Positions 44,466 through 50,485 of a stretch of DNA of 64,000 nt are shown here, one piece after another. Location: the NCBI RefSeq assembly GCF_045037415.1, contig NZ_CP173438.1; one strand, 5' to 3'. This DNA comes from Escherichia coli. GTDB taxonomy: Bacteria > Pseudomonadota > Gammaproteobacteria > Enterobacterales > Enterobacteriaceae. Position numbers and translations under genes: made by a program. Position 1 is the stretch's first letter, and each line of letters starts with the position of its first letter. Under the pieces are notes generated by a model. That model had not been told where the DNA came from and did no database searches. It saw nothing but the letters and a program-made list of their open reading frames with translations.

Positions 44466-45923
44466 ATGACAATAACTCCACAAAACCTGATCGCACTGCT
44501 ACCGTTGCTGATCGTCGGCTTGACGGTGGTGGTTGTGATGCTCTCCATTGCGTGGCGACGCAATCATTTTCTCAACGCTACGCTCTCGGTTATTGGGCTT
44601 AACGCGGCGCTGGTTTCGCTCTGGTTTGTCGGCCAGGCGGGCGCTATGGACGTTACGCCACTGATGCGCGTTGATGGTTTCGCCATGCTTTACACCGGGC
44701 TGGTATTGTTGGCGAGCCTCGCCACCTGTACTTTCGCCTACCCGTGGCTTGAAGGCTATAACGACAACAAGGATGAGTTCTACCTGTTGGTGTTAATTGC
44801 CGCGCTGGGCGGGATCCTGCTGGCGAATGCCAACCATCTGGCGTCTCTGTTCCTCGGTATCGAACTGATCTCTTTGCCGCTGTTTGGCCTGGTCGGTTAC
44901 GCTTTCCGCCAGAAACGTTCGCTGGAAGCCAGTATCAAATACACCATCCTTTCTGCCGCAGCGTCTTCTTTCCTGCTGTTCGGTATGGCGCTGGTGTATG
45001 CGCAGTCTGGCGACCTGTCGTTTGTCGCACTGGGTAAAAACCTCGGCGACGGTATGCTCAACGAGCCGCTGTTGCTGGCAGGTTTCGGCCTGATGATTGT
45101 TGGCCTCGGCTTCAAACTCTCTCTGGTGCCGTTCCACCTGTGGACGCCAGACGTATACCAGGGCGCGCCTGCGCCGGTTTCCACTTTCCTGGCGACGGCG
45201 AGCAAAATCGCTATCTTCGGCGTGGTGATGCGTTTGTTCCTTTACGCACCGGTGGGTGACAGTGAAGCGATTCGCGTAGTGCTGGCGATTATCGCCTTTG
45301 CCTCCATCATCTTCGGTAACCTGATGGCGCTGAGCCAGACCAATATCAAACGTCTGCTCGGTTACTCATCTATCTCTCACCTCGGCTATCTGCTGGTGGC
45401 GCTGATTGCGCTGCAAACCGGCGAGATGTCGATGGAAGCGGTAGGGGTTTACCTGGCAGGTTATCTGTTCAGCAGCCTCGGCGCGTTCGGCGTGGTCAGC
45501 CTGATGTCCAGCCCGTATCGTGGCCCGGATGCTGATTCCCTGTTCTCTTACCGCGGTCTGTTCTGGCATCGTCCGATCCTCGCGGCAGTGATGACGGTGA
45601 TGATGCTTTCACTGGCTGGTATCCCAATGACGCTGGGCTTTATCGGTAAGTTCTACGTGCTGGCGGTCGGTGTCCAGGCACACTTGTGGTGGCTGGTGGG
45701 TGCCGTAGTTGTCGGTTCGGCAATCGGCCTCTACTACTACCTGCGTGTGGCGGTGAGCTTATACCTTCACGCTCCGGAACAACCGGGTCGCGATGCACCA
45801 TCAAACTGGCAGTACAGCGCAGGCGGTATCGTGGTGCTGATCTCTGCACTGTTGGTACTGGTGCTGGGTGTATGGCCACAACCGCTGATTAGCATTGTGC
45901 GGTTAGCAATGCCGCTGATGTAA
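44466..45923 (+). CDS. nuoN: NADH-quinone oxidoreductase subunit N
   Basis: 485-aa antiporter-like membrane ORF, last nuo gene. Confidence 0.95.
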
Positions 45924-45947
45924 GCAGTCAGTTTGTAAGTCAGAAAG

Positions 45948-45973
45948 CCGCCGACATGTTCGGCGGTTTTTTT
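45948..45973 (+). terminator. intrinsic terminator of the nuo operon
   Basis: CCGCCGA (45948-45954) / TCGGCGG (45960-45966), loop CATGT, followed by 7 T (45967-45973). Confidence 0.7.
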
Positions 45974-45989
45974 GGGTGCCCTGACACCA

Positions 45990-46493
45990 TCACCCAACAA
46001 TAACCGTCAGCGCATGATTCCCTTGTCGCAGCATACGTCGATACGCGCTAATCAGCTTTTCCATATCAAGCATGATCGAAGCAAAGAGTTGCCCCTCTAA
46101 CTCTTCTGAAAAGGTTACTCCCGGATAAATCTCCATTTCATTGAGTCGCTTAATGGAAAACTGTTTACGCAGCTCACTTCGATCCAGTGATTCCAGTCGG
46201 TCGATTGTCGCGGCTAACTCCTGATTCCAGGTCAATCCCAGGAAGCCATCTATGCCATCTTCTAGGCTGTGTTCACCAAGCACTGCGCGACTTAGCGGGT
46301 CATTCTTCGCGGGGTCAAATGCAGATGTACCCGTCAGGCCAAAGTGTAAAAAATCCCAGCGTTTATCAATATCCAGTCGGCGTAATCCTGAAAGCGTGTC
46401 ATGTATATTATCCATCAAAGGTTTTTTAGTAGACTCAAGCAGTTGGTTAATCTTTTCTGAGTCAATTTCTGCAAAATAGCCAATCATTCCCAT
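45990..46493 (-). CDS. yfbM: DUF1877-family protein YfbM
   Basis: 167-aa ORF; recognised by sequence and by the yfbM-yfbL-yfbK arrangement. Confidence 0.75.
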   Translation of the reverse strand: MGMIGYFAEIDSEKINQLLESTKKPLMDNIHDTLSGLRRLDIDKRWDFLHFGLTGTSAFDPAKNDPLSRAVLGEHSLEDGIDGFLGLTWNQELAATIDRLESLDRSELRKQFSIKRLNEMEIYPGVTFSEELEGQLFASIMLDMEKLISAYRRMLRQGNHALTVIVG

Positions 46494-46595
46494 TTATTTT
46501 TCCTCCGTTGAATTTCATGTTTCGCATCTTAAAACAGACGAAAGAAAATAAAATGCGCATGTTGCTTTTTCTGGATCCGCCTCGAGAAATTTTTA

Positions 46596-47567
46596 TTATT
46601 TACTGTTGTATAACAAGGTTGTAACTCCATCCACTACCTGAGCCATTTTCTGATAATTTAATCTGTCTGCGATATCACCGGGAAAGTGGTATTGTTTATT
46701 ACGATAAAAAGCGGTGTCAGTAATCATTACGGCGGGAATATCGTATTGCCAATAATTAAGGTGATCAGAGAAATCAATACCGGGAATAAAACCTGGGGCA
46801 TTCATAGAATAAACAGATAAATCCCGGGATGACAACAATGCCGCTTTTACCTGACGAACGGCGTTGATATCCTGCATTCTGCCGACCACGGCAATAAAGT
46901 CTCCCCGATCGGGATAAAGCCAGGACATGGCCGGGGATGGGTAATCCTGGCTACCAGGCGTAGAGTCGTAATAACCAATCATCTCCAGCGCTATCATTAA
47001 TTTCACTGGACGCTCAAGCGAAGCTGCATGTACCGCGCTCCCCATTTCATCGCTACGAAAGAAGGGCGGTTCTTCCGACGCATAGGCGACCAGCTGCACG
47101 CCTGTTTTCGGTGCTTGCTGCTGTAACAAACGTGCCAGTTCGAGTAATCCTGCCACACCGCTGGCGTTATCATCCGCGCCCGGCGTATAGGTCAATTGAT
47201 CGTTTTCGTAACTACTGACAGAGTCATAGTGCGCACCAATAATAATCAGCGGTCCATCGGCAGGACCATAATTAGCAACAATGTTTTTGTAGGGGCCACC
47301 CGTAATGGGGATATCCTGCGCGGTAACTCTGGCACCGCTACTGATAAAGACCTCTTTTATATACTCTGCGGATCTATTCAGATTATCAATATTGTCGGCG
47401 CTACGTGGATGCACAGTTTGTGTAAGATAACGAACTGTTTTTTCTAATTGCTCAGGACTAGCGTGTCGGGGCGTTGGTGGTAATGCATTCACCCAGGGTT
47501 GGTAAAAAATAATCAGAGGGAGTGAAAATAGAAATAATATAATAAAAGCAAAATTTATTTTTTTCAT
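46596..47567 (-). CDS. yfbL: M28-family aminopeptidase
   Basis: Track ORF starts at TTG 47573; ATG at 47567 gives 323 aa; signal peptide plus Zn-peptidase motifs (HYDS, DDNASG). Confidence 0.8.
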   Translation of the reverse strand: MKKINFAFIILFLFSLPLIIFYQPWVNALPPTPRHASPEQLEKTVRYLTQTVHPRSADNIDNLNRSAEYIKEVFISSGARVTAQDIPITGGPYKNIVANYGPADGPLIIIGAHYDSVSSYENDQLTYTPGADDNASGVAGLLELARLLQQQAPKTGVQLVAYASEEPPFFRSDEMGSAVHAASLERPVKLMIALEMIGYYDSTPGSQDYPSPAMSWLYPDRGDFIAVVGRMQDINAVRQVKAALLSSRDLSVYSMNAPGFIPGIDFSDHLNYWQYDIPAVMITDTAFYRNKQYHFPGDIADRLNYQKMAQVVDGVTTLLYNSK

Positions 47568-47704
47568 ATGCAAATTATTAATGGGTTGCGTTGTTGAATC
47601 ATTATTTGTTATGGGTTTCGATATTGTATTTTATTAAGATTAGCAGGATTATACAAAGAGTGTATTTTATGTCGGGGCCCTGAGTTTATTTAAAAGGATT
47701 TTAT

Positions 47705-49447
47705 ATGCGAAATAAAAATATAATCATGTTGCTTATAAGTAGTTTGATTTTGTCAGGATGTGGGCCGGAACCTGAGGATAAGAAAAGTCAGCAACAACAA
47801 TCTACTACACCCACTGACCAGCAAGTGCTTGCCGCGCAACAAGCGGCAACAAAAGTGGCTGAGCAAAGCGCCGCCAAAGCCGCTGCAGACGCGAAAGCCT
47901 TAGCCCAGCAAGAAGTGCAACAATATTCAGACAAACAGGCTTTGCTGGGGCGATTGCAGGCGGCTCCAAAATATCAACATGCAGCCAGAGAAAAAGCAGC
48001 CTCCCAAATCGCAAATCCAGCAACCGCTCGCTACCAGCAGTTCGATGATAATCCGGTTAAGCAGGTAGCGCAAAACCCGTTGGCGACGTTTAGCCTTGAC
48101 GTCGATACCGGCAGTTATGCGAATGTGCGGCGTTTCCTTAATCAAGGGCTGTTACCTCCGCCAGACGCTGTGCGGGTGGAGGAGATAGTCAATTATTTCC
48201 CGTCTGACTGGGATATCAAAGACAAACAATCTATTCCGGCCTCTAAGCCAATACCTTTCGCTATGCGCTACGAATTGGCACCTGCACCCTGGAATGAACA
48301 GCGAACATTGCTGAAAGTTGATATCCTGGCGAAAGATCGCAAAAGTGAAGAGTTACCCGCTTCTAATCTGGTCTTTCTTATCGACACGTCTGGTTCAATG
48401 ATTTCTGATGAACGTTTGCCACTTATCCAGTCTTCGTTGAAATTATTGGTCAAAGAACTTCGTGAGCAGGATAACATTGCCATCGTGACCTACGCTGGCG
48501 ACTCTCGTATTGCGTTGCCTTCTATCTCCGGTAGTCACAAGGCGGAAATTAATGCTGCAATTGATTCGCTGGATGCAGAAGGCAGTACCAATGGCGGTGC
48601 CGGGCTGGAGATGGCTTATCAGCAGGCAGCGAAGGGGTTTATTAAAGGTGGTATCAATCGCATTTTATTGGCCACTGACGGTGACTTTAACGTTGGCATT
48701 GACGATCCAAAATCGATTGAATCAATGGTCAAAAAACAGCGTGAGTCCGGTGTTACTCTGTCGACGCTTGGCGTGGGGGATAGCAATTATAACGAGGCAA
48801 TGATGGTGAGAATTGCCGATGTTGGTAACGGCAACTATAGCTACATTGATACCCTCTCAGAGGCGCAGAAAGTGTTGAACAGTGAAATGCGGCAGACGTT
48901 GATTACCGTAGCAAAAGATGTCAAAGCGCAAATTGAGTTTAATCCCGCGTGGGTAACGGAATACCGTCAGATAGGTTATGAAAAGCGCCAACTTAAGGCA
49001 GAGGATTTTAATAACGACAACGTTGATGCGGGTGATATTGGCGCAGGTAAACATATAACATTGTTATTTGAATTAACGCTGAAAGGGCAAAAAGCATCAA
49101 TTGATAAGTTACGCTATGCCCCGGATAACAAATCAGCGAAATCGGACAAAACAAAAGAACTTGCCTGGTTAAAGATTCGTTGGAAATCCCCACAGGGAAA
49201 AGAAAGTCAGTTAGTTGAATTCCCGTTGGCATCTGCAATAAAGGCACCTTCAGAAGATATGCGCTTTCGCGCAGCAGTGGCTGCATATGGGCAAAAGTTA
49301 CGCGGTTCTGAATACCTGAACAATACCTCCTGGCAGCAGATCAAACAGTGGGCTCAGAAGGCAAAAGGGGAAGATCCACAGGGTTACAGAGCGGAATTTA
49401 TTCGCCTGATTGGACTGGCGAAAGATCTGGACAATTCACAAAACTAA
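47705..49447 (+). CDS. yfbK: von Willebrand factor type A domain lipoprotein
   Basis: 580-aa ORF with lipobox (LILSGC), Gln/Ala-rich N-terminal region, vWA MIDAS motif (DTSGSM). Confidence 0.8.
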   Translation: MRNKNIIMLLISSLILSGCGPEPEDKKSQQQQSTTPTDQQVLAAQQAATKVAEQSAAKAAADAKALAQQEVQQYSDKQALLGRLQAAPKYQHAAREKAASQIANPATARYQQFDDNPVKQVAQNPLATFSLDVDTGSYANVRRFLNQGLLPPPDAVRVEEIVNYFPSDWDIKDKQSIPASKPIPFAMRYELAPAPWNEQRTLLKVDILAKDRKSEELPASNLVFLIDTSGSMISDERLPLIQSSLKLLVKELREQDNIAIVTYAGDSRIALPSISGSHKAEINAAIDSLDAEGSTNGGAGLEMAYQQAAKGFIKGGINRILLATDGDFNVGIDDPKSIESMVKKQRESGVTLSTLGVGDSNYNEAMMVRIADVGNGNYSYIDTLSEAQKVLNSEMRQTLITVAKDVKAQIEFNPAWVTEYRQIGYEKRQLKAEDFNNDNVDAGDIGAGKHITLLFELTLKGQKASIDKLRYAPDNKSAKSDKTKELAWLKIRWKSPQGKESQLVEFPLASAIKAPSEDMRFRAAVAAYGQKLRGSEYLNNTSWQQIKQWAQKAKGEDPQGYRAEFIRLIGLAKDLDNSQN

Positions 49448-49567
49448 AAATGATAATTCTGTTTGCCTGATATCGACATCAAACGTATCCGGCAAACAGA
49501 TGAAAAAATGTCAAATAAATGTGTTGGTATCGTTAAATTAATCTGCTAACTAACCACCGCTTTCGAC

Positions 49568-50485
49568 TTAAATGCTAAACACCGCGAAATCATTCGCCAG
49601 TTCAGTCGCCGGGAAAATTGACCGACATTCACGTAACAGGTGCTGACAACCTTTGTCATCATAGCGTGAGCTGACGTGGGTAATGATTAGCTTACCGACT
49701 CCAGCCTCACGGGCTAGTGCCGCCGCCTGGCGTGTAGAACTATGGCCGCGACTGTTGGCTTTGGCCTCCATCGCCATATCCAGAGTCGCTTCGTGAACCA
49801 TTACGTCGACGCCTTTAGCAAGCTCCAGCGCGGCATCGCAGGGGCCGGTATCGCCGAAAATAGCGAGCGCTTTACCCGGCACTGGAGCGGCTAAGTAATC
49901 TGCGCCATTAATCTGCCTTCCATCATCCAGCATGATTGTTTTGCCCGCTTTTAATTCCTGAAACAGCGGGCCAGGCGGCACGCCAGCAGCTTTTAATGCC
50001 TGGGCATTTAATGCACCTGGTTTATCATGTTCTTCAATACGATAACCATAACATTCCAGTGGGTGTTCCATCGGATAAGCGGTCACTTTGCGCAGGCCAT
50101 CATCGAAAATTTCGCCAGTGCTAATTTCGACAATTTCCAGCGGATAATCGGTCCATGAGCCGCTAATCCGCAGCGCGGTCTCCACAAATTCACGGATACC
50201 GTGCGGACCATAAATCGTTAAGGGTTGGATAATGCCTGACATAGAACGACTGCACAGCAAGCCGGGTAAACCAAAGAGATGATCGCCATGAAGGTGACTG
50301 ATAAAAATCTTGTCCAGTTTTCCAGGGTTAAAGGCAGTATGCAGTAGCTGATGCTGGGTGCCTTCACCGCAGTCAAATAACCAAAGTCCGCTCTGGGTCG
50401 GATGTTGCAGGTTAAGCAATATTGCCGTGACATTACGCGTACGGGTTGGCACACCGGCTGAAGTACCTAAAAAAATTAATTCCAT
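49568..50485 (-). CDS. rbn: ribonuclease BN / RNase Z (metallo-beta-lactamase fold)
   Basis: 305-aa ORF with HxHxDH motif (HLHGDH). Confidence 0.9.

Follow-up and report, generated by a model that had tools for sequence, protein, structure and literature searches.

The elaD-free yfbM–yfbL–yfbK locus of a phylogroup B2 Escherichia coli probably represents the unoccupied, ancestral Escherichia arrangement

Does the absence of elaD, and of yfbN, yfbO and yfbP, from the segment between nuoN and rbn in some Escherichia coli chromosomes reflect gene loss, or are the sites that these genes occupy in K-12 simply vacant? The question is raised by a 64,000-nucleotide stretch of E. coli DNA (contig NZ_CP173438.1 of RefSeq assembly GCF_045037415.1; hereafter the window), in which the open reading frame (ORF) list and the raw sequence give the order nuoN, a terminator, yfbM–yfbL–yfbK, a short spacer and rbn. 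The original prediction, made from the sequence alone, described the trio as a reduced islet and considered an inverted repeat in the yfbK–rbn spacer as a possible deletion scar. Our analysis confirmed the observation and supports its interpretation in part: with a probability of roughly 0.85, we consider the interval to be the phylogroup B2 (sequence type 131, ST131) allele of a structurally polymorphic segment, with both variable junctions in the unoccupied ancestral Escherichia arrangement. Over a 4.1-kb interval at this locus, the window matches O25b:H4-ST131 and other genomes with 100% identity, which identifies it as part of a phylogroup B2 chromosome; identity to Nissle over the same interval is 98.7%.

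In the K-12 derivative used for comparison, the gene order is nuoN, yfbP, yfbO, yfbN, yfbM, yfbL, yfbK, elaD, rbn, just as stated in the original prediction. Homology between the window and K-12 is unbroken except at 45975-45988 and 49421-49564, and these two breaks make the proposed strain difference a genuine one. At the first, 14 bp of the window stand against a 2558-bp yfbP–yfbO–yfbN segment (yfbPON) in K-12, and at the second, 144 bp stand against a 1493-bp elaD cassette. The second break starts 27 nt before the yfbK stop codon, so that the last nine codons of YfbK differ from K-12, and its other end lies 3 nt short of the rbn stop codon. The distance of 120 bp that had been given between the yfbK and rbn stops proved exact (49448-49567), and no elaD ORF or remnant was present in this spacer, either in the ORF list or in a comparison with the K-12 elaD segment. 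Both K-12 segments are poorer in G+C (elaD 35%, yfbPON 40%) than the window (52%). In addition, identity between the window and K-12 along yfbK changes toward the elaD junction from 98 through 97, 94, 94 and 92 to 92% in successive 200-bp bins, and this rising divergence fits the possibility that diverged DNA was brought in with the cassette. At the edges of the K-12 insertions, we found no convincing repeats or target-site duplications.

The direction of change can be judged from related genomes. Outgroups came from one YfbK scan of species-representative genomes, which yielded five further Escherichia genomes and did not include E. fergusonii, Salmonella or Citrobacter. In E. whittamii and the three cryptic-clade genomes Escherichia sp. 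E1V33, MOD1-EC7003 and SCPM-O-B-8794, rbn follows straight after yfbK with no elaD between them, and the spacers of these genomes align with the 144 bp of the window, including its hairpin, at 85-96% identity, which is comparable to the flanking genes and in line with species-level divergence. SCPM-O-B-8794 is titled E. coli, yet identity to the window is only 84-86% in rbn, elaA and menF. Because a deletion of elaD cannot regenerate sequence that is missing from the elaD allele, the window spacer is read here as the ancestral unoccupied allele, with no scar. The 144 bp are common to elaD-free sister Escherichia, and therefore elaD, with its G+C content of 35%, would be the derived insertion.

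The prevalence of elaD might seem to favor the opposite direction. We counted alleles in a census set of 5426 complete E. coli genomes, 5424 of which entered the count of interval coverage. The K-12 elaD segment was found in 4492 of the 5426 genomes, and the 144-bp segment with its hairpin was found as a single copy in 914, always at the 3′ end of yfbK; the sum of 5406 fits two mutually exclusive alleles, as far as totals, compared overall and not genome by genome, can indicate. At least 80% of the interval is covered in only 2518 of 5424 genomes, and the low-coverage genomes that we sampled have no intact yfbL–yfbK pair. The window is thus one of the more complete yfbM–yfbL–yfbK versions, and the description of a reduced islet, which takes K-12 as the standard, is not supported; yfbNOP is a feature of only 1015 of the 5426 genomes.

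If a B2 ancestor had carried K-12-like elaD and yfbPON and had then lost both, the hairpin spacer would be what remained. Besides the majority of genomes with elaD, this history could call on a recent survey that reads the B2 absence as loss (PMC12575377), on the elaD stub in B2 strain 536, and on the fact that deletions do happen here, as in the 211-genome stub allele and the ATCC 8739-type yfbL–yfbK deletion described below. However, nothing in the K-12 allele corresponds to the 144 bp, so no deletion could yield them; their orthologue is the spacer of sister species without elaD, as seen in four non-coli Escherichia genomes. The real deletion allele is also quite different in that it retains 111 nt of elaD, and yfbPON is found in a minority of genomes and shows hardly any diversity. 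We therefore regard loss from a K-12-like ancestor as extremely improbable, and the idea of a deletion scar is not upheld. The hairpin was also sought in elaD-positive genomes, where its presence had been expected to speak against a scar; it was not found there, yet the outgroup spacers still decide against the scar.

True deletions at this locus have a distinct structure. In 211 genomes, the order is yfbL, a 37-codon 5′ stub of elaD (111 nt) and rbn, with yfbK and most of elaD gone; the corresponding part of the window is 47568-49567. Carriers of this stub allele include O78:H4 and other poultry isolates, DETEC-P793, APEC17 and the B2 strain 536, whose stub matches its “pseudogene” entry in Catic et al. 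(2007; PMC1847702). B2 thus holds two different elaD-free alleles, and the absence of functional elaD has been reached by two routes. Another deletion, of the ATCC 8739 type, takes out yfbK together with the 5′ part of yfbL (equivalent to about 47000-49300 of the window), and elaD of ATCC 8739 is also a pseudogene. A further genome, HH97, combines K-12-type rbn (99.7%), elaA (100%) and menF, yet has an empty-site spacer 96.5% identical to that of the window, next to a frameshifted yfbK. Because of HH97, the empty allele is taken to exist outside the B2-type background as well, and hence to be mobile between backgrounds.

The junction between nuoN and yfbM raises the same question on a smaller scale. 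The nuoN transcript is predicted to end at a 13-bp stem followed by U7 (-23.3 kcal/mol as RNA), and this terminator does not vary between E. coli, E. whittamii and a cryptic clade. The yfbM stop codon (45990-45992) lies 16 nt past its T-run, in agreement with the distance of less than 20 bp noted at the outset. The same tight junction is present in an elaD-positive E. coli, in APEC17, in E. whittamii and in SCPM-O-B-8794. As yfbPON is carried by only 1015 of the 5426 census genomes (985 of them at least 99% identical to K-12), K-12 is the exception with respect to yfbNOP. A few E. coli, such as ETEC6335, have a variant of yfbO/yfbN with an SMI1/KNR4-family gene at this junction.

Several observations weigh against the reading of both junctions as ancestral and unoccupied. 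The polarity argument rests on five outgroup genomes, and at greater depth the picture is less uniform: the spacer of E. albertii is a third, unrelated type of about 130 bp, and Superficieibacter has a gene with CheW and receiver domains between yfbK and rbn. Because of these two, the state deeper than the group of E. coli and the cryptic clades is not fixed. Comparison of the E. albertii spacer and the window spacer with the flanks of the K-12 elaD cassette returned chance words of 8-11 nt only. At the other junction, homologues of yfbN and yfbP, together with two genes that have no Pfam match, occupy the nuoN–yfbM locus in Superficieibacter, and a yfbN homologue occupies it in MOD1-EC7003; an old, shared loss of yfbNOP is conceivable for this reason, and the “empty” nuoN–yfbM junction could be its product. 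Furthermore, the 3′ half of yfbK in the window (48175-49174, about 1 kb) is 99-100% identical to MOD1-EC7003, which is otherwise 92-96% identical. This tract points to recent exchange, and MOD1-EC7003 is therefore not a fully independent witness; unlike it, E. whittamii, E1V33 and SCPM-O-B-8794 are independent witnesses. Finally, since the elaD stub of B2 strain 536 lies next to a B2-type rbn, elaD-bearing alleles were once present in B2 backgrounds.

The last two observations lead to a different history, in which the E. coli ancestor had elaD and B2 exchanged the segment from the yfbK 3′ end to elaD for the empty allele of a cryptic clade by homologous recombination. The near-identity of yfbK to MOD1-EC7003 over about 1 kb, with neighbors at 92-97%, documents exchange at exactly this place, the strain 536 stub adjoins a B2-type rbn, and in HH97 the empty allele is accompanied by K-12-like rbn, elaA and menF. 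By contrast, the exchange with MOD1-EC7003 has no established direction, and the MOD1-EC7003 spacer is 95.8% and not 100% identical to that of the window, so the recent tract seems to end before the spacer. Such a history also needs one event more than simple retention. Overall, we consider re-acquisition unlikely. Retention of the empty allele and its re-import by homologous recombination cannot be told apart, and under either route the sequence is the ancestral allele, with no scar.

If the locus is indeed ancestral and unoccupied in the window, elaD would be a derived insertion, gained by E. coli outside B2, with the 1.49-kb, low-G+C cassette replacing 144 bp from the last nine codons of yfbK up to the rbn stop codon. 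It would then have spread together with the diverged 3′ part of yfbK. In a minority of genomes, the 2.56-kb yfbPON segment would likewise have replaced 14 bp.

What, then, is the hairpin that lies in the unoccupied yfbK–rbn spacer? The 10-bp perfect inverted repeat that had been reported there is present at the coordinates in Table 1; if one mismatch is allowed, its arms lengthen to 15 nt around a 13-nt loop, forming a bulged stem. Perfect 10-bp inverted repeats with a loop of at most 30 nt occur only 11 times in the whole window. The hairpin folds at -21 kcal/mol on either strand, with z scores of -4.2 and -4.6, and none of 200 shuffled sequences was as stable. A consensus terminator scan, which considers loops of 3-8 nt, listed neither the nuoN terminator nor this hairpin, and folding was used instead. 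Among four distinct sequences from six genomes, 98.4% of pair cells are kept, and the changes comprise one double change from G-C to A-U and two changes to wobble pairs.

Stem-loops between convergent genes serve as unidirectional or bidirectional intrinsic terminators or as stabilizers of 3′ ends. The hairpin most likely serves the convergent yfbK and rbn transcripts as a stem-loop, either by ending them or by protecting their 3′ ends, or both. It resembles convergent-gene terminators in being single, stable and centered in a short spacer, with an A-rich and a T-rich side; it differs from them in lacking an uninterrupted U-tract and in having a 13-nt loop and a bulged stem, and a role in termination is a prediction. 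A counterpart in K-12 (L001:7965-7998), which came with the elaD cassette, lies at the equivalent position directly 3′ of yfbK, there too between convergent genes, and is one strong, perfect palindrome. Unlike the hairpin of the window, to which it is unrelated in sequence, it has a 15-bp perfect stem, a 4-nt loop and a stability of -32 kcal/mol. The elaD cassette would thus bring its own hairpin for the same task at the transcript ends.

Some features of the hairpin speak against such a role. Its tail on the + strand is UGAAAAAAUG, with no U-tract, and that on the - strand is AUUAUCAUUUUUAGUUUU, which is U-rich but interrupted; the hairpin therefore fails the canonical criterion for an intrinsic terminator, a U run directly after the stem. 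The claim that neither strand has a U-tract accordingly stands for the + strand and falls for the - strand, on which the stem is followed by AUUAUCAUUUUUAGUUUU. In addition, covariation of the paired positions is not significant, as 136 of 500 shuffles reached the score observed with the four distinct sequences.

A more specific function might be supposed for the hairpin, for instance that of a small RNA, of a palindrome bound by a protein or of one copy in a family of repeated extragenic palindromes, given its strong stability, its retention across species, the missing canonical U-tract and a promoter-like match just upstream (49428-49457). Against this, the hairpin matches no Rfam family at E ≤ 1, and promoter-like matches in the scanned region are no more frequent than chance (8 against 7.4 expected). 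Because it occurs at one place per genome in all 914 carriers, it is not a repeat of the repetitive extragenic palindrome or bacterial interspersed mosaic element (REP/BIME) type. The replacement allele, moreover, supplies an unrelated hairpin at the equivalent position, as would be expected of a generic terminator role. We consider a distinct element of this kind very unlikely, and a stem-loop serving the two transcript ends remains our preferred assignment.

We also came across a flanking inverted repeat that could have marked a site of cassette exchange, with 19-nt arms at 49408-49426 and 49589-49607 complementary at 16 of 19 positions, a match that none of 3000 random window positions reached. 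It is treated here as a coincidence. YfbK and Rbn share an LA(K/N)D motif close to their C-termini, and the arms correspond to the codons that both genes use for it. The right arm is situated 25 nt within rbn and does not coincide with the breakpoint, and in the outgroups only 10-14 of the 19 positions match.

Farther to the right, the segment 50465-50965, which comprises elaA and the rbn–elaA intergenic region, is 74-87% identical to K-12 per 100-bp bin, with flanks at 95-100%. elaA falls into two alleles: 1119 genomes carry one at least 99% identical to that of the window, 4301 carry one at 80-90%, and only 2 genomes lie between. The boundaries of the divergent block are sharp. Identity of the B2-type allele to the Escherichia outgroups is 81-84% in every one sampled, and the K-12 type reaches 97% against MOD1-EC7003. 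These sequence relationships suggest that the elaA allele of the window was imported from elsewhere. The number of genomes without intact elaD, about 1125 (914 empty and 211 stub), is close to the 1119 with the window allele of elaA (about 83% identical to the K-12 type), a comparison that concerns totals only. The rbn-side junction might on these grounds belong to a small block of deep alleles that segregate together, although we regard this as distinctly improbable. If true, the block could reflect functional coupling of the GNAT acetyltransferase ElaA with the deubiquitinase ElaD, or selection that maintains two ancient haplotypes, as opposed to clade history alone.

The remaining features of the locus are given in Table 1. 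Identity of nuoN to K-12 is 98%. The yfbM–yfbL–yfbK trio is atypical in composition, with 45-47% G+C against 52% in the window and 57% in nuoN. The original prediction had called the spacers AT-rich, and this is correct for the two internal spacers (34 and 29% G+C) and the yfbK–rbn spacer (35%), and incorrect for the nuoN–yfbM spacer (53%). We found no mobility genes, att site or flanking direct repeats at the trio by Pfam and repeat searches, no tRNA scan having been made. The trio has the same location in other Escherichia species; in Superficieibacter, this is true of yfbL and yfbK. An Rfam search of the interval (E ≤ 1) gave a single match, a spurious long non-coding RNA inside yfbL. On our reading, the interval contains no mobile or novel element, and nothing has been deleted here.

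With respect to the individual genes, the mechanically called ORF of yfbL reaches a TTG at 47573, compared with the RefSeq start at 47567. The intergenic region between yfbL and yfbK is the presumed site of divergent promoters, as judged from the gene arrangement only. In yfbK, the Gln/Ala-rich linker after the lipoprotein signal peptide (47787-48174, codons ~28-157) is hypervariable, with 78-88% identity among the alleles compared, and the length of YfbK differs between strains (575, 580 or 584 amino acids).

Table 1. Features of the nuoN–rbn locus, in coordinates of the window.
Feature	Position	Strand	Basis and remarks
nuoN	44466-45923	+	485-amino-acid ORF; RefSeq annotation in identical genomes; last gene of the nuo operon, left core flank
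nuoN intrinsic terminator	45942-45973	+	G+C stem 45947-45966, 5-nt loop, T7 45967-45973
Unoccupied yfbPON site	45975-45988		14 bp (GGTGCCCTGACACC) where K-12 homology breaks
yfbM (DUF1877 protein)	45990-46493	-	Pfam PF08974, E = 3.7e-35; RefSeq annotation
yfbL (M28 family metallopeptidase)	46596-47567	-	Pfam PF04389, E = 4.1e-25; RefSeq start 47567
yfbL/yfbK divergent intergenic region	47568-47704		29% G+C
yfbK (vWA-domain protein, lipoprotein-type N-terminus LILSGC)	47705-49447	+	Pfam vWF_A, VWA, YfbK_C
yfbK–rbn junction segment, ancestral type	49421-49564		144 bp; no similarity to K-12; holds the position of the elaD cassette
Stem-loop between convergent yfbK and rbn	49458-49500		10-bp perfect repeat 49458-49467 / 49491-49500
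rbn (ribonuclease BN, alias elaC)	49568-50485	-	305-amino-acid ORF; RefSeq annotation; right core flank

The strain difference itself is already known. Catic et al. (2007; PMC1847702) found elaD in K-12 and intestinal pathotypes and not in extraintestinal pathogenic E. coli (ExPEC), and a 2025 survey in Front Microbiol (PMC12575377) reported elaD to be absent from all B2 and G strains, all ST131 included, and suggested loss. The absence of elaD from extraintestinal pathogenic lineages, which the original prediction had mentioned, is thus borne out by both publications, and the window, identical to ST131, shows the same pattern at the same locus. The published surveys score presence or absence; here, the junction sequence and the outgroups resolve two routes to absence, and our additions are the direction of change and the recognition that elaD-free alleles are of two kinds. 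That B2/ST131 genomes lack elaD and most E. coli lack yfbNOP is ordinary, previously reported pangenome variation. Separate genomes, such as B2 strain 536 and the poultry-associated lineages, became elaD-free by real deletion. The ST131-type elaD-free state would instead be an ancestral unoccupied site, and this would correct the direction that is assumed when adaptive gene loss is discussed in ExPEC.

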